A stretch of DNA of 21,007 nucleotides from Armatimonadia bacterium (GTDB lineage Bacteria; Armatimonadota; Zipacnadia; Zipacnadales; UBA11051), in contig JBDKRC010000228.1 of NCBI GenBank assembly GCA_039683575.1, positions 1-21,007 on the forward strand. Reading direction: 5' to 3'. The position numbers were made by a program, and so were the translations under genes. The notes under the pieces were generated by a model. The model saw only the letters and a program-made list of their open reading frames with translations. It did not search any database and was not told the origin of the DNA. How positions within the stretch are numbered: position 1 is the first letter of the stretch; each line of letters starts with the position of its first letter. This document shows, piece after piece, positions 7-21,007 of the stretch.

Positions 7-663
7 TTAGTCCGCTTCGGAGGTCCAGAGCCTGTACGCGCCGCTGGCGGCGGGCTGCATCAGGTCGCTGGGCTTGTACCACTTGGCGTGGCCATCGGCA
101 AAGCCGATGTTGTTGCCGTCATTGTGACGGTTGGGCAGGTAGGTCATGAGGTTCTGCTGGCTGGAGATGTACTGCCATCCCATCTCAAAGGCGGTGAAGT
201 CGCCGAGGATGATCGTCTCGGCCGGGGCCTGGATGGCGCCAAGGGCCTTGCCGTAGGGGGAGGTGACAGTGACGCCGGCTACGCCGCTGCCGCCGTAGTA
301 GGCGGTGCTCAGACCGTAGCTGAGGGTGGAGCCGGGGGCGCCATTGTTGGCGACGATGGTGCGGCCGCTGTCACTGGGGCAAAGGAAGATCTGCCAGTTC
401 TTGATGTAGGGGGATACGGCCTGGGGCCACTGGTAGTTGCCAGGATAGGCGTTGGGGCCGCGCCAGGAACTGGGCAGCATTTCGTCGTAGTCCTGGGTAT
501 AGCTCAGGATGGCGGTGTTCATCTGGCGGATGTTGGAGAGACATGAGGCCTGGCGAGCCTTCTCACGGGCCTTGGCGAAGACAGGAAAGAGGATTGCCGC
601 GAGAATGGCGATGATGGCGATGACCACGAGCAATTCGATGAGGGTAAAACCGCTGCGTCGCAT
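7..663 (-). CDS. Prepilin-type N-terminal cleavage/methylation protein with C-terminal H-X9-DG motif (DUF1559-like), 218 aa
   Basis: Starts [29 protein letters not shown] (class III signal, G|F and E5). Has CxSN..Q, FLCPSD and [17 protein letters not shown]. Start moved to ATG 663, which has an upstream AGGAGG. Confidence 0.92.
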
Positions 664-866: not shown

Positions 867-1526
867 TTAGTCCGCTTCGCAGGTCCAGAGCCGATACGCG
901 GTGCTGGCGGCGGGCTGCATGAGGTCGGTGGGCTTGTACCACTTGGCGTGGCCATCCACGAAGCCGACGTTGACGCCATCGTTGTGGCGGTTGGGCAAGA
1001 AAGTACTGAGGTTCGGCTGGTTGGCAAGATACTGCCAGGATATTTCGTGGCCGGTGTAGTCAGCGATCATGATCGTCTCAGCCGGGGCCGTGATTGTGCC
1101 GAGCGACTTGGCATAGGGCGAGGTGATGGTGACACCGGCGACGCCGCTGCCTCCATAGTAGGCGGCGCTGTAACCGTAGCTGACGGACGAGCCGGGAGCG
1201 CCATTGTTGGCGACGATGGTGCGACCGCTGTCACTGGGGCACAGGAAGATCTGCCAGTTCTTGATGTAGGGCGCGCACGCCTGGGGCCATTGGTAGCTAC
1301 CGGGGGAGGGGGTGACGGGGCCGTACCAGGTGGAGGTCAGCTTTTCGTCATAGTCCTGGGCATAGCTGAGGAGGCTCAGGTTGATCTGCTTGACGTTGGA
1401 GAGACATGAAGACTGGCGGGCCTTTTCACGGGCCTTGGCAAAGACCGGGAACAAGATTGCGGCAAGAATGGCGATGATCGCGATAACCACGAGCAATTCA
1501 ATGAGCGTGAAACCACTACGTCGCAT
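867..1526 (-). CDS. Prepilin-type N-terminal cleavage/methylation protein with H-X9-DG motif (DUF1559-like), 219 aa; paralog of 7..663
   Basis: Same 38-aa N-terminus as 7..663 and [17 protein letters not shown]. About 78% aa identity by manual alignment. GGAGG precedes ATG 1526. Confidence 0.92.
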
Positions 1527-10616: not shown

Positions 10617-11516
10617 ATGGCTGAAAACTTCGCTGATCGCCTGGCTGCCGCGATGCGGCAAAAGGACAGCCGCCTGTGTGTGGGGCTCGATCCCCGCCTG
10701 GACCTCCTGCCCGCCGATGATCTGCCCGAAGACCCCGAGGCCCGCGTCGAGGCTTTCTGCTGCAGCATCTGCGACGTTGTCGCCCCCTATGCCGTGGCCG
10801 TAAAACCGCAGTCAGCCTATTTCGAGGCCCTCGCTCCCGGCGGCCTCGCCTGCATGTGGCGCGTGATCCGCTACGCCAAGAGCCTCGGGCTCCTGGTCAT
10901 CGTTGACGCCAAACGCAACGACATCGGCTCCACCGCCACCGCGTACGCCGCCGCCTGTCTGGGCATGCATACCGGCACGACCGAGCCTATCGCAGACGCG
11001 GTCACCATCAACGCCTACCTGGGCTACGATGGTGTCGAACCCTTCATCAATCTCGCCCGTGACCATGGCACGGGCGCTTTTGTACTGGTCAAGACTTCCA
11101 ATCCCGGCTCGGGCCAGCTTCAGAACCTGACGCTGGAGAGCGGGCAGACGGTATATCAGCACGTTGCCGACCTCGTGGCCCAATGGGGCGGCGACCTGGT
11201 GGGCATCAGCGGCTATAGCTCCATCGGGGCGGTAGTCGGGGCCACATATCCCGAGCAACTCGCGGAGCTTCGCCAGCGCATTCCCACCGTGCCCTTCCTG
11301 GTACCTGGCTACGGCCACCAGGGCGCCACTGCCGCCGATGTCAGCGCGGCCTTTGACGATCGGGGCCTCGGAGCGATAGTGAACTCAGCGCGCGGCATTA
11401 TCTACGCTTTCCGCCGGGAGGGCGGCGACTTCGCGGAAGCCGCCGAGGCTGCCGCTGCCAAGTCGCGGCAGGAGTTGAATGAGGCCGTACAGGGCAGAAC
11501 GGAGGCCGGCAGTTGA
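10617..11516 (+). CDS. pyrF: Orotidine-5'-phosphate decarboxylase (subfamily 2)
   Basis: LCVGLDP, KPQSAYFE, DAKRNDIGST (DxKxxD), LVKTSNPGS, GAVVGAT, LVPGYGxQG, VNSARGI. Confidence 0.96.
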   Translation: MAENFADRLAAAMRQKDSRLCVGLDPRLDLLPADDLPEDPEARVEAFCCSICDVVAPYAVAVKPQSAYFEALAPGGLACMWRVIRYAKSLGLLVIVDAKRNDIGSTATAYAAACLGMHTGTTEPIADAVTINAYLGYDGVEPFINLARDHGTGAFVLVKTSNPGSGQLQNLTLESGQTVYQHVADLVAQWGGDLVGISGYSSIGAVVGATYPEQLAELRQRIPTVPFLVPGYGHQGATAADVSAAFDDRGLGAIVNSARGIIYAFRREGGDFAEAAEAAAAKSRQELNEAVQGRTEAGS

Positions 11517-12658
11517 CACTCAAGGGCAAAAGCCTCGTCTCGCTCTCGGACTTCAGCCATACGCAGATCATGCATCTGCTCGACCTGGCCGAAGCGATGG
11601 CGCGCGCCATCGGCTTTGATGACCCGGCGGACCGCACTCCCGCCGAGCCGCTTGACGCCATCGCCGCCACGCTCTTCTTCGAGCCCAGCACCCGCACCCG
11701 GCTCTCGTTCGAGTCCGCGATGCTCCGCCTCGGCGGCCAGACCCTCGGTTTCGCCGAAGCCAGTTCGAGTTCCGTCTCCAAGGGCGAGACCCTTGCTGAT
11801 ACCGTCCGCACCGTCAGCGCCTACTCAGACATCATCGTGATCCGCCACCCACTCGCCGGCTCGGCCCGCGTGGCCGCCGACTATGCCACGGTTCCAGTAA
11901 TCAACGCCGGTGACGGCGCCCGCGAGCACCCGACGCAGACGCTTACCGACCTGTTTACCATCCGCCGCGAACTCGGCACGCTGTCAGGCCTGAAGATCGG
12001 CCTCGCCGGCGATCTCAAGTATGGCCGCACGGTCCATTCGCTGGCTCCCATGATGGCCGGCCTCGGCTCCGACCTCGTCTGCATCTCCCCCGAGCAACTT
12101 CGCATGCCCGAGGAGGTCCTGGCCAAGGTCGGCGCCGCCGGCCGCCATGTCACCGAGCTTACTGACCTTGCCGAGGGCATCGCCGACCTGGACGTGCTCT
12201 ACATGACCCGCGTCCAGCGCGAGCGTTTCCCCTCTGACGAGGAGTACCAGGCAGTCAAGGGCTGCTGCATCCTGACGCCGGAGCTTCTGGCGCGCGCAAA
12301 GGAGGACATGCGAGTGCTGCATCCACTGCCGCGGGTTGACGAAATCACTCCCGGCGTGGATGTTGATAGGCGAGCCGCCTATTTCCGCCAGGCCGCCGGC
12401 GGCGTCCCGGTCCGCATGGCCCTTATCGCCACGCTACTCGGCCTGCCGTCCGCAGAGACCCGCCGCCCCGGCGCAGGCTTCGGCCGCACCGACAAGGCAG
12501 TCTGCGAAGAGGCAGCGCCAGCCGCCGCACCAACAATCAAAATGTCCGACCGCTGCCCGAACCCCAAGTGCATCACCAAGGCGGAGGGCTACCTGCAGCC
12601 CCAGTGTTACGAACAAGCAGGTGAGCGCTACTGCGCTTACTGTGAGATGGCTCTATAG
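11513..12658 (+). CDS. pyrB: Aspartate carbamoyltransferase catalytic subunit with C-terminal PyrI-like zinc-binding extension
   Basis: FFEPSTRTRLSFE, KGETLADT, INAGDG..EHPTQ.L.D, GDLKYGRTVHS, TRVQRERF, HPLPR. TTG start overlaps the pyrF stop (TTGA) behind GGAGG. Tail is CPNPKCIT...YCAYCE. Confidence 0.95.
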   Translation: MTLKGKSLVSLSDFSHTQIMHLLDLAEAMARAIGFDDPADRTPAEPLDAIAATLFFEPSTRTRLSFESAMLRLGGQTLGFAEASSSSVSKGETLADTVRTVSAYSDIIVIRHPLAGSARVAADYATVPVINAGDGAREHPTQTLTDLFTIRRELGTLSGLKIGLAGDLKYGRTVHSLAPMMAGLGSDLVCISPEQLRMPEEVLAKVGAAGRHVTELTDLAEGIADLDVLYMTRVQRERFPSDEEYQAVKGCCILTPELLARAKEDMRVLHPLPRVDEITPGVDVDRRAAYFRQAAGGVPVRMALIATLLGLPSAETRRPGAGFGRTDKAVCEEAAPAAAPTIKMSDRCPNPKCITKAEGYLQPQCYEQAGERYCAYCEMAL

Positions 12659-12677
12659 AGGCGGAGGAGGTGAGCCA

Positions 12678-13673
12678 GTGTACAATTCAGTACGAGTTCA
12701 GAACTTCCGCGGCCTCCGTGATGTGACGCTAGAGGGGCTGACGCGAGTCAACCTGGTCGTTGGCCAGAACGGCGTTGGCAAGACAGCTCTACTGGAGGCC
12801 GTGTTCCTGCTCGCCGGCCTGCAACTACCTGACCCTCTGCGAGCGATCGAGACCCGCCGAGGGCTCCGCGAACCGTTCAGGACGTGGTCTCTCGATGAGG
12901 GTTTGCTTGAGAGCCTGTTCTATGGGTTCAACATGGCTGACGAGGTAGAGGTACAAGGCAATGGTGACGTGTTCACCCTTGCCTCGACGCGCGAGCAGGG
13001 GCAGCTTGTACCCAGGCTGTCTTGGCACTTAGCCGACGGCAGGGGGTCGACCACAATCTATGATCGTGATGGCAACATTGGTGGCTTTCAATCCGACCCG
13101 CGAGCGTTGCCGTCGCACAGACCGGTCTTCTTGGGTACGCGTGCGTTGCCCGCGCTCAAAGATGAAGCAGATCAGTTCTCAACGATGGTACAGGAAGGCA
13201 AACGGCCTCAGGTCATAGACTCGCTACAGGTGATAGAGCCGAGGTTGCAGCGCCTCGAACTGCTCAAAATGGGAGAGCAGGTTGCAGTGCACGCGGACGT
13301 GGGGCTCGCCAGAATGGTTCCGCTCGGGCTGCTCGGGGAAGGGCTGCAACGCCTCAGTTCCTTCGTCCTTGCCACTGCCGAAGCGTCCGGATACATGCTC
13401 CTGGTTGATGAGATTGACACCGGCCTGCATTACAGCATCCTGACCGACATGTGGCGAGTCGTGTCAGCCGCCGCCAGTGAGTTCAACTACCAGCTCTTCG
13501 CCACCACCCACAGCTACGAGTGCATGACCGCCGCCTACGAAGCCTTCGCCGACAATCCTGAAGACTTCTCCATGCATCGGCTGGAACGTCGCGAGGACGG
13601 CAGCATCGTCAGCAAAGACTTCGGGCATGACATGTTAGGGGTCGCGCTCGAACGCGGCTTCGAGGTGCGCTGA
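12678..13673 (+). CDS. ABC-type AAA ATPase (AAA_15/AAA_21-like)
   Basis: VQNFRGL, Walker A GQNGVGKT, degenerate signature LGEG, Walker B/D-loop LLVDEIDTGLH, H-loop ATTHS. GTG start behind GGAGGAGG. Confidence 0.88.
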   Translation: MYNSVRVQNFRGLRDVTLEGLTRVNLVVGQNGVGKTALLEAVFLLAGLQLPDPLRAIETRRGLREPFRTWSLDEGLLESLFYGFNMADEVEVQGNGDVFTLASTREQGQLVPRLSWHLADGRGSTTIYDRDGNIGGFQSDPRALPSHRPVFLGTRALPALKDEADQFSTMVQEGKRPQVIDSLQVIEPRLQRLELLKMGEQVAVHADVGLARMVPLGLLGEGLQRLSSFVLATAEASGYMLLVDEIDTGLHYSILTDMWRVVSAAASEFNYQLFATTHSYECMTAAYEAFADNPEDFSMHRLERREDGSIVSKDFGHDMLGVALERGFEVR

Positions 13674-14302
13674 TGGCGCGTTGCGGCGATCTTGCGAAGC
13701 CATTCAGTGCAGAACACCCAAGAGTCCTCCTTGTAGAGGGAAATGATGAGTTCTACCTCCTCTTGGAGCTATTGGGGCAGCTTGAACTGAACGTCGACGT
13801 GCGCGTCTACGACGGAGTCTCGGAACTGGCTCCCACTCTCATGGCTTTGGGGACGGGAACCGCCAGGGGCTTCGACAGCGTCACCACCATGGGGGTGTGG
13901 CGAGACGCCGATATCGTCGCAGACGACGCGCTGCAGAGCGTTCAGAACGCCCTGCGGCTCGCGGGCTTCGCGGTGCCTAACGCCTCAGGGGGGTTCGCAG
14001 AGGGGCAGCCTCGCGTGGGTCTTCTCATCCTACCTGATGGCGCCGCTCCAGGGGCACTTGAGAATGTCTGTGTAGCGTCCGTTCGAGACCCCGCTGCTTT
14101 GCCTTGCATAGACGGCTACATCGAGTGCCTACAGCGAGCAGGGGTGCACTTGCACCCCAACCTGGACAAGACAAGAGTGCATGCCTTTCTCGCCTCGCGC
14201 GAAGAGCCGGGCCTAAAAATCGGCGAGGCCGCCAAAGCCAGACACTGGGACTTCTCGCATCCCGCCTGGCAACCGTTGATCGAATTCCTGAGAGCTATGT
14301 GA
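13673..14302 (+). CDS. DUF3226-like TOPRIM-type protein, partner of the ATPase
   Basis: LLVEGNDE, DAD, GALE.VC and K..VHAFLAS.EEPG motifs. TGATG overlap with the ATPase. Confidence 0.75.
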   Translation: MARCGDLAKPFSAEHPRVLLVEGNDEFYLLLELLGQLELNVDVRVYDGVSELAPTLMALGTGTARGFDSVTTMGVWRDADIVADDALQSVQNALRLAGFAVPNASGGFAEGQPRVGLLILPDGAAPGALENVCVASVRDPAALPCIDGYIECLQRAGVHLHPNLDKTRVHAFLASREEPGLKIGEAAKARHWDFSHPAWQPLIEFLRAM

Positions 14303-14328: not shown

Positions 14329-15579
14329 ATGGACCTTTCCGGCAAGTACTGCATCGAGACCCCCAAAGTCAAAAAGTGCGCCGTCGCTTATAGCGGTGGC
14401 CTTGACTCCGCGCTCGCGCTCAAGCTTCTGCCCGATTACTACGGTGTTGAGGAAGTCCTCGCCTGCACCGTCAACGTCGGCCTCAGCGACTACGAGATCG
14501 AGCTCTGCCGCTCCAAGGCCGAGCTTCTGAACGTGCCGTGGCACTACATCGACGCCGAGAAGGAGTTTGTAGACAAGTTCATCACCCGCGCGATCTATGC
14601 CAACTCCAACTACGAGGGCTACCCCGTCTCGACCTCGATGACCCGCCAGCTCATCGCCCGCAAGGTCGCTGAGTTCGCCGTCGCCAATGGCTGCGACAGC
14701 ATCTGCGAAGGCTCCACCGGCAAGGGCAACGACCAGTTCCGCATGCACAACGTATTCTCGCTGTTTGCCCCGGACGCCACCATCGTGGTCCCCGTGCGCG
14801 ACTTCGACTTCACCCGCCAGGACGAGATGAAGCTCTCCGAGCAGTACGGCATCCCCTACAAGGCCGGCATCGGCGATGACCTCACCATGTGGTGCCGCTC
14901 CATCGGCTCCGGCGAAGTCAGCAACCTCAAGATGGTCATCCCGCAGAGCGATTACCTGTGGTACAAGTTCCCCGAGAATGCCCCGGACAAGCCGCGCCGC
15001 ATGGAAATCGAGTTCACCAATGGCCTGCCGTCCCGCGTGGACGACAAGACCGATCTGGCCGAGATCATCCACTATCTCAACCAGGTCGCCGGCGAGAACT
15101 CCATCGGCAAGATCGACATGTTCGAGGACGGGGTCATCGGCCTGAAGTCGCGGGAAGTCTACGAGGCCCCCGCCGCCAAATTCATCCTCGCGATGCACAA
15201 GGACGCCGAGCAGCTCTGTTTGACCAAGGAACAGATCCAGTTCAAGCCCGAGATCGAGCGGCTGTGGGCCTACATGGTCTACCACGGTGGCTGGTATCAT
15301 CCCGTAACTGAGGACTGCGCAGCCTTCCTGGCGTCTTCACAATGGGCAGTCAACGCCAAATACGAGGTCGAGATCTACAAGGGCAACATCAACATCCTCA
15401 GCCGCGAGAGCGACAGCCGCCTCTTCCGCCCCGAGCTCCGCGCCATCGTCGAGCGCGAGAAGGAAGCTGGCGAGGTCCGGATCGAATGGGAGCAGCAGGA
15501 AAGCGGCCCGGCCGTCAAGATCGCCGGCTTCCAGTACCAGATCATCGGCCACCGCGGCATGCCGTACGCGAAGGATTAA
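14329..15579 (+). CDS. argG: Argininosuccinate synthase (divergent)
   Basis: AYSGGLDS PP-loop, TGKGNDQ.R, GLKSREVYEAP. GGAGG RBS. Lies near argH. Confidence 0.9.
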   Translation: MDLSGKYCIETPKVKKCAVAYSGGLDSALALKLLPDYYGVEEVLACTVNVGLSDYEIELCRSKAELLNVPWHYIDAEKEFVDKFITRAIYANSNYEGYPVSTSMTRQLIARKVAEFAVANGCDSICEGSTGKGNDQFRMHNVFSLFAPDATIVVPVRDFDFTRQDEMKLSEQYGIPYKAGIGDDLTMWCRSIGSGEVSNLKMVIPQSDYLWYKFPENAPDKPRRMEIEFTNGLPSRVDDKTDLAEIIHYLNQVAGENSIGKIDMFEDGVIGLKSREVYEAPAAKFILAMHKDAEQLCLTKEQIQFKPEIERLWAYMVYHGGWYHPVTEDCAAFLASSQWAVNAKYEVEIYKGNINILSRESDSRLFRPELRAIVEREKEAGEVRIEWEQQESGPAVKIAGFQYQIIGHRGMPYAKD

Positions 15580-20228: not shown

Positions 20229-20903
20229 CTAATTGAACGGGTTGCGGAAGGTCTCCTCCGGCGGGTGAACCGAGGAGGCCGCATTGTAAGGCGCGGGGAA
20301 GCCACACGAGACCAGGCTGCTGGTGGAGAACTTCATCCACTTGGCGTGGCCATCCACGAAGGCGAGGTTGCCGCCCTCGTTGTGCCGGGCATCGCACGCG
20401 TAGTACTGGTCCATGAGCACATACTGCGGATTGCCTCCGGCGAGTTTCTCAGTTACCAACATGGTCTCGGCAGGCCGGGTAAACTGGCCCAGGGACGGAG
20501 GGGGAACAGCTCTGAACAGGTCGATCTTGGCCACAGCCGGCGTTGTCGTGTAACCGCAATCCGGGGTGCCGTAGTCGCATCCAATCGGAGCGGGTGTCCC
20601 GCTGGGGCACCTGTACACCTGCGTATTCTTGACGTATGGGTAGATTTTGTTGATCCAGGTGTCCTGATAGGAGCTCCAACTCGCCACCCAGTTGAAGTCC
20701 GGGGCGCCGGGAACCGGGCCGGAACCATAGGCCCCGGCGATCCGACCCGAATCGCGGAGGGGGAATCGCTCATCATAGTCCTGCGTGTACTGGATCATGC
20801 CCAGCGACAACTGCTTGAGGTTGTTCAGACAACTCGTCTGGCGGGCCTTCTCGCGGGCCTTGGCGAACACCGGAAACAAAATCGCTGCCAGAATGGCAAT
20901 GAT
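20229..20903 (-). pseudogene. Third prepilin-type/H-X9-DG gene, lacking the [12 protein letters not shown] leader at the expected position (interrupted or 5'-truncated)
   Basis: Reads [28 protein letters not shown]... to [17 protein letters not shown] with no stops. Similarity to the paralogs ends abruptly at 20903. Confidence 0.75.
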
Positions 20904-21007
20904 GTAGCCGCTGAAAAACAGCAAGCAGGTATCGTTTTGTCTCAAGGGAATCCTTGGTTGAGGTGATCTGCTTGCAGCACAAGTCTCAGCCCCATGCGCC
21001 CTCGCTC
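20904..21007. mobile_element. End of a putative inserted element or structured sequence abutting the broken prepilin motif (runs off the window)
   Basis: Non-pilin sequence starting GTAGCCGCTGAAAAAC with a long imperfect hairpin at 20910-20990. No transposase is visible in the window, so the element type is inferred. Confidence 0.4.

Follow-up and report, generated by a model that had tools for sequence, protein, structure and literature searches.

A probable site-specific insertion of an IS1182-family element in the leader of a prepilin-like gene of an Armatimonadia bacterium

The stretch of DNA analysed here, called the window, is 21,007 nucleotides long and comes from an Armatimonadia bacterium (assembly GCA_039683575.1, contig JBDKRC010000228.1). 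It is the entire contig C228 of 352 in this source genome, which was designated G000. At its right-hand end the 3' part of a prepilin-like gene of the DUF1559/H-X9-DG type is joined to the first 104 bp of an insertion sequence (IS). The sequence ends at 21007 because the contig ends there, inside a repeat. The following features were placed at the junction.

20229..20903, minus strand: 3' part of a DUF1559/H-X9-DG prepilin-like gene, 224 codons and a stop codon (translation, PF07596, TIGR04294)
20899..20903, no strand: one copy of a 5-bp target-site duplication, ATGAT on the plus strand and ATCAT in gene sense (junction comparison)
20904..21007, plus strand: first 104 bp (left end) of a 1819-bp IS1182-family IS (repeat copies, full copy on contig L020)
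20904..20919, plus strand: left terminal inverted repeat GTAGCCGCTGAAAAAC, a 15/16 match to the right end GTAGCCGCTGAACAAC (end comparison)
20963..21007, plus strand: first 15 codons of the transposase, with an in-frame TTG at 20954 as an alternative start (translation)

The gene remnant at 20229-20903 begins at the second isoleucine of AIIA and has neither a start codon nor the N-terminal half of the leader. It matched PF07596 with 44.4 bits (Pfam cutoff 23.3) and TIGR04294 with 23 bits (cutoff 19, NCBIfam/TIGR models). The prepilin N-terminal domain gave no match in the remnant because the insertion removed the leader half; in the intact paralog P0003, TIGR02532 matched with 33.8 bits. Two intact paralogs lie in tandem on the minus strand at 7-663 and 867-1526, with ATG at 663 and 1526. 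A preliminary description of the window had reported a third prepilin copy without its leader half, foreign DNA upstream of 20903 and a downstream gene body free of decay. Translation against the two paralogs confirmed the first two points, and the body is open for 224 codons to its H-X9-DG end. The split of the leader was also as described, but the break is better placed as VVIAI/IAIL, with a duplicated ATCAT, than as VVIA/IIAIL. Both isoleucine codons are kept in the remnant because 5 bp were duplicated.

The 104 bases from 20904 to 21007 were present 10 times in the genome, each time at a contig end, and nine of the copies were identical and one was at 98%. The foreign DNA is therefore a feature far beyond chance. 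The interior of the IS was not found in the G000 assembly, and its innermost 20-55 bases occurred only at two contig ends that were already known. A full copy was found on metagenome contig L020 by an exact-match scan with 31 tip bases. This copy is 1819 bp long with one open reading frame (ORF) of 542 codons, and it was identical at 102/104 positions to the window, at 156/159 to contig C286, which holds the longest left end, and at 119/119 to the right end. Both ends, read inward from outside, are GTAGCCGCTGAA[A/C]AAC. The transposase gene points away from the pilin remnant, and both contig C286 and the 542-aa ORF of L020 continue its frame as ...YDDVVGASYIPQNHLLRR.

The L020 transposase matched the NCBIfam model for IS1182 family transposases (NF033551, cutoff 270) with 322.4 bits, and those of three related copies, G024, L023 and L028, matched with 308.8, 348.3 and 315.8 bits, respectively. 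The Pfam domains DUF772 (PF05598), DDE_Tnp_1 (PF01609) and DDE_Tnp_1_6 (PF13751) were all found above their cutoffs. The inverted repeats, the one long ORF and the lengths of 1819 bp (L020) and 1813 bp (G024) agree with the IS1182 family, for which ISfinder gives a length range of about 1.3-1.95 kb. Judged by its sequence, the element is an ordinary insertion sequence of this known family with a predicted DDE transposase of about 540 codons. The IS1182/IS5-like look of the ends, which the preliminary description had suggested, thus proved apt. That description had further considered either an IS or a miniature inverted-repeat transposable element (MITE) aimed at a conserved high-copy motif. 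The first holds, with inverted ends and the motif as target. The window copy is not a MITE, since it holds the start of the transposase, and MITE derivatives were found in related genomes.

The tip ...TTCAGCGGCTAC was found at 19 contig ends of G000, comprising 10 left ends (...CTGTTTTTCAGCGGCTAC) and 9 right ends (...GGTTGTTCAGCGGCTAC). The right-end type was discovered by scanning all contig ends for half-leaders. The left ends adjoin six second halves and four first halves of leaders, and the right ends adjoin six first halves and three second halves. Next to each tip stands ATCAT or ATGAT (in one case ATCAA), and beyond it a leader half. All 19 junctions fall at one nucleotide, in both orientations, as GCN-ATCAT/IS/ATCAT-YGC. 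The repeat search with the 104 bases that had been proposed earlier thus found a multicopy sequence whose junctions recur at the same codon of different prepilin genes. G000 holds about ten copies of the IS, and one right-end junction is absent from the assembly. A twentieth match, in contig C233, was rejected as a 12-mer that occurs within a gene by chance.

The transposase is antisense to the interrupted gene in 6 of the 10 copies of G000. The corresponding counts are 2/6 left-end junctions in the related genome G024 and 9/12 in G057, and no consistent orientation bias is claimed. In G000 all nine second-half bodies keep an open frame as far as the H-X9-DG end, and the IS ends hardly differ from one another, so the insertions are recent. 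Contig C301 (at its left end) has the sole interrupted copy with altered leader residues, INAIL..FPDF instead of IIAIL..FPVF, and it may represent an older insertion that is beginning to decay.

Two other explanations that had been put forward for the split leader were weighed against these data. A self-splicing group II (or group I) intron would leave the pilin gene expressed after splicing. The element does end in ...GGCTAC before an exon-like ATCAT, and its sequence near this end allows a stem that leaves one A unpaired. However, no Rfam family matched the full element at the gathering score, and none matched 20500-21007 up to E = 10. The element carries inverted repeats at its two ends, is accompanied by a duplication of 5 bp and encodes a DDE transposase of the IS1182 type but no reverse transcriptase, and it occurs in both orientations relative to the gene (6 vs 4 in G000). 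An intron is therefore extremely improbable. The leaderless copies could instead be silent cassettes, with the repeat as a recombination site in the manner of pilS or a shufflon. About ten leaderless bodies and about ten bodiless leaders are indeed joined to identical repeats, and L020 shows that recombination between IS copies may rearrange the halves. On the other hand, the repeat is a transposon in its own right, complete with transposase, and every leaderless body and bodiless leader adjoins an IS tip (19/19). The halves are spread over 19 contigs with no clustering at an expression locus, and IS-IS recombination can never restore an uninterrupted gene. Judged by the repeat and the layout of the halves, and with no search of the genome aimed at a shufflon-type recombinase, this explanation was given next to no weight.

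The junction at 20903/20904 could also be an assembly chimera of leader and IS repeats, the gene being intact in the cell. The assembly is fragile here: a single similarity cluster, to which the prepilin leader and the IS ends belong, takes in 246 of the 704 contig ends of G000. An all-against-all comparison of contig ends was uninformative, as the leader itself links the 246 ends, and the repeated leader may be a major cause of the fragmentation. The flank arrangement in L020 is odd as well. None of the Logan contigs of four public runs bridges 20903/20904, and these contigs are too short to confirm or refute the junction. Against a chimera, in 16 of the 19 contigs the IS bases held and the flank shared with the most similar junction add up to exactly 127. 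The window contig continues for 104 + 23 = 127 bases after the last position at which it differs from C169. A sum of 127 is the de Bruijn signature of a unique path entering a repeat, and it means that the reads contained 127-mers that span the junction. In other assemblies, long contigs (G024 contig C34 of 316 kb, L023 and L028) also enclose complete copies together with their two flanks. A chimera is accordingly very unlikely, if less so than an intron or a cassette.

The site of insertion was then compared with the leaders that are still intact. The two paralogs in the window each hold an unoccupied site.

605..621, minus strand: unoccupied 17-bp target site ATCGCCATCATCGCCAT (gene sense) in the paralog at 7-663 (sequence)
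1468..1484, minus strand: unoccupied 17-bp target site ATCGCGATCATCGCCAT (gene sense) in the paralog at 867-1526 (sequence)

The target is a 17-bp interrupted palindrome, AT.GC.AT.AT.GC.AT, that arises from the peptide IAIIAI (ATy GCn ATC ATy GCn ATy). The amino acids determine 12 of the 16 positions that flank the central base, and these 12 are complementary to one another, and for this reason the leader holds the palindrome. The gene family has at least 158 intact paralogs in G000. The 17-bp pattern occurred 148 times in 158 recognisable intact leaders and twice elsewhere. The 11-bp core GC.ATSAT.GC occurred 126 times in leaders and 145 times elsewhere, with no junction at those 145. The motif ATSAT occurred 11882 times in the genome.

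The same site is occupied in related genomes, by elements whose transposase identities range over 36-89%. G024, from the same order and another family, holds a complete relative of 1813 bp whose transposase is 73% identical to that of L020. This copy lies within an otherwise intact gene with ATCAT on either side. An unbiased search with both IS ends placed 12 of 13 junctions in leaders in G024 and 2 of 2 in G041. In G057 a different IS (tips GTGACCGCTGAA) had 22 of 22 junctions in prepilin-type leaders, with one variant leader, IIAIMAAALMPA. The contigs L023, L024 and L025, from Armatimonadota metagenome-assembled genomes (MAGs), and L028, from G225 (same phylum only), carry transposases that are 36-44% identical to that of L020 and interrupt the same codons. 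A duplication was seen on both sides of the complete copies L019, L023, L024 and L028. It reads ATAAT/ATAAT in L024, and ATTAT was found in G024 and in the L060 MITE. From the variants ATCAT, ATAAT and ATTAT it follows that the duplicated 5 bp are ATNAT, a true direct repeat that is not part of the inverted ends. By our own reading, the consensus of the tips across the relatives would be S-TRNNN-GCTGA(A/G)AA. The transposase of L019, which is the copy in G024 contig C34, has a one-base frameshift after about codon 21 (~500-520) compared with the copy in C21. Two near-identical contigs that hold only the IS (L021 and L022) were binned as Planctomycetota; contigs as short and repetitive as these are not binned reliably.

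MITEs of 106-140 bp with IS1182-type tips (GTGACYGCTGAAA...) occupied the same leader site in L049 and L065 (G003, same genus), L060, L072 (G045) and L046 (G029). Each MITE adds a stop codon directly after the junction, giving VVIAIM* or VVIAMI*. Of 401 genomes sampled from the phylum, 10 gave 1 to 22 matches each to a junction pattern of tip and half-site, and these 10 all belong to the order of the window genome. This count is a lower bound, because tips of the G225 type escape the pattern and many IS junctions fail to assemble. The reversed control of the pattern gave 0 matches. A protein search found the transposase in 3 of 301 genomes of the phylum, which is a poor gauge of its spread since IS interiors are mostly unassembled in these MAGs.

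The specificity could be mostly apparent and a matter of survivorship, if the IS used a loose short motif (ATSAT or the 11-bp GC.ATSAT.GC) and insertions elsewhere were purged by selection. Other sites exist, as the counts of the two motifs show. One off-target junction was found in G024, and insertions in a family of about 150 members should be nearly neutral. Nevertheless, the junctions in G000, G024 and G057 (19/19, 12/13 and 22/22) lie at one nucleotide, with none in the dispensable bodies of about 200 codons or in intergenic DNA. If the 11-bp core sufficed, the probability that ten insertions would all fall in leaders is about 7e-4 by our own arithmetic from the counts. Relatives at only 36% identity hold the same position. 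Survivorship as the main cause is therefore improbable, although we rate it above a chimeric assembly.

We consider, with a probability of roughly 93%, that the window holds the left end of a 1.8-kb IS1182-family IS inserted site-specifically into the leader of a DUF1559/H-X9-DG prepilin-like gene. This reading is carried by what the data show directly: how the element is built and to which family it belongs, how many copies there are, exactly where they join the leaders, and that distant relatives and MITEs keep the same site. The transposase would recognise the palindrome of about 17 bp, ATyGCnAT-N-ATyGCnAT, in the hydrophobic core of the prepilin leader. Staggered cuts of 5 bp about the dyad centre would then leave ATNAT flanking each insertion. 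The site has two-fold symmetry and so allows entry in either orientation. The insertion parts the promoter, the start codon and the leader half from the mature body and thereby knocks the gene out. Single hits are probably cheap given about 150 paralogs, and close to neutral on this argument, and the paralog family would act as a safe landing zone. A broader proposal is that a whole IS1182 lineage, down to 36% transposase identity and with MITEs of its own, is specialised on one 17-bp site that exists solely because IAIIAI is encoded by a palindrome. The expanded H-X9-DG family of Armatimonadota would be its safe harbour and would in turn be pruned and reshuffled by the element. We hold this broader proposal with slightly better than even confidence.

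Several observations weigh against the site-specific insertion or some part of it. With the interior unassembled in G000, the left end contributes 104-159 bp and the right end 113-123 bp to the identification, which otherwise draws on a metagenome copy. In L020, where the sole full copy of this IS was found, two leader first halves stand head to head on its flanks. These lie on the minus strand at 2435-2411 and 591-540. Either two IS copies were rearranged, by deletion or inversion between them, or the contig is chimeric. No first half was matched to its own second half in G000, so the duplication was seen directly in other genomes only. No intact ortholog of the interrupted gene was found in three genomes of the same genus. 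Besides short matches of <100 bp, the best matches of the ortholog search were leader-proximal paralogs at no more than 84% identity. The interrupted gene of G024 likewise had no intact ortholog in G041. The one hint of an empty site is a 275-nt Logan contig (run X3) that joins the body of this gene to an intact first half. Nine of its 209 aligned bases differ, and it may come from an empty-site relative, a relative's ortholog or a paralog.

Two junctions were off-leader, namely 1 of the 13 in G024 (L040) and one pattern match in G011 (L051), and part of the apparent specificity could come from selection against insertions at other sites. In L040 (G024:C26, ~10730-10855) the right IS end adjoins the non-leader DNA TATCTCGCGGTGATGAC..., either because the IS inserted off target or because the locus was rearranged. 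The centre base of the duplication is a further difficulty. It differed between the two sides in 2 of 5 MITEs inspected, ATGAT vs ATCAT in gene sense. An unexpected G in place of C (gene sense) was found beside first halves in L022, L053, L076 and L078. In all these cases (L072, L046, L022, L053, L076 and L078) both tips read ATCAT outward, and no reverse case was seen. A simple staggered cut or IS-IS recombination does not account for this mismatch. It may point to an unusual integration step, for example one in which nucleotides of the donor flank are carried into the new site.

A hairpin had been described in the foreign DNA, and it was placed in the 5' leader of the transposase.

20921..20975, plus strand: hairpin in the transposase 5' leader, GCAAGCAG (20921-28) pairing with CTGCTTGC (20968-75), with an inner CAAGG/CCTTG stem (minimum-energy folds)

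The pairings quoted in the preliminary description are real, and the minimum-energy fold also pairs 20910-14 with 20986-90. The claim of a structured sequence was not supported statistically, as the fold energy is ordinary (z = -0.44 on the plus strand and -0.66 on the minus strand; 60/200 and 47/200 shuffles, respectively, reach an energy as low or lower). Of the two arms, the 5' one is 18-25 bases away from the tip and the 3' one spans transposase codons 2-5. The same stem was found in L020. As a common fold the hairpin was not conserved among nine relatives, though the start region was paired in most single-sequence folds. The hairpin is not a defining structure of the element, and it overlaps the transposase start codon. 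It may mask this start in transcripts that read in from outside, an arrangement known in other IS elements. The frame of 34 codons reported earlier is open, but it is merely the antisense of the transposase 5' end. In the full copy 129 codons are open in this frame without any ATG, and the frame is without meaning.

Elsewhere in the window, a gene for an AAA_21/AAA_15 ATPase followed by a DUF3226 gene was found at 12336-14302 on the plus strand, between pyrB (11513-12658) and argG (14329-15579). The pair looks like an inserted two-gene module in a housekeeping pyrimidine/arginine stretch and is possibly related to defence.

These insertions form a natural data set on IS1182 target choice, with dozens of independent insertions at the same nucleotide in both orientations and transposases diverged to 36% identity. 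Target choice in this family has so far been described only for the hairpin 'replacement' by IS1272. The insertions indicate that a protein-coding constraint, here a palindromic hydrophobic peptide, can create a transposon landing site, and that a very large paralog family can serve as a safe harbour, much in the way that R2 elements use ribosomal RNA (rRNA) genes. The IS and leader repeats account in part for how fragmented these assemblies are. For annotators, 'leaderless' H-X9-DG genes at contig ends are genes split by an IS and do not represent a novel class of genes. As an integration tool, a compact transposase whose 17-bp site is defined could merit testing.

No relevant paper on an IS in prepilin leaders or in DUF1559 genes was found in the literature searched, which did not cover ISfinder entries. 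The undescribed part seems to be the target, one exact coding position in the signal peptide of an expanded gene family. Elements of the IS1202 family (ISAjo2 group) resemble the window IS in holding a fixed position in a conserved, repeated site of dyad symmetry, pdif/dif (PMC10132070). They belong to another family, lie in a single orientation beside a Xer site and have a non-coding target. IS1272/TnSha1 of staphylococci is closer, with a transposase of the IS1182 family, terminal inverted repeats of about 16 bp and both orientations at one target (PMC4923244, PMC5678879). The palindromic target of the window IS agrees with what is published for the family: IS1272 is reported to insert into inverted repeats or hairpins, sometimes in both orientations, and both papers cite Siguier 2015 for the targeting of palindromes by some IS1182 members (PMC4923244, PMC5678879). 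Unlike the window IS, IS1272 is described as having no primary-sequence specificity, as deleting part of its target with no duplication and as inserting mostly at terminators (PMC4923244, PMC5678879). The window IS, by contrast, enters one defined sequence within a coding region and duplicates 5 bp.

Homing to abundant palindromic repeats as harmless landing sites is known from IS1397 and ISKpn1, which target repetitive extragenic palindromes (REP) or bacterial interspersed mosaic elements (BIME), and from the IS1111-attC group. The targets of these elements are non-coding repeats or recombination sites, and their transposases belong to other families. With the window IS, the palindrome arises incidentally from a peptide conserved in an expanded gene family. 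The R1 and R2 retrotransposons use one exact site in the multicopy rRNA genes, and the damage is buffered by redundancy. They are eukaryotic retrotransposons without long terminal repeats, with a different mechanism and with identical target genes, whereas the targets of the window IS are a diverse paralog family.

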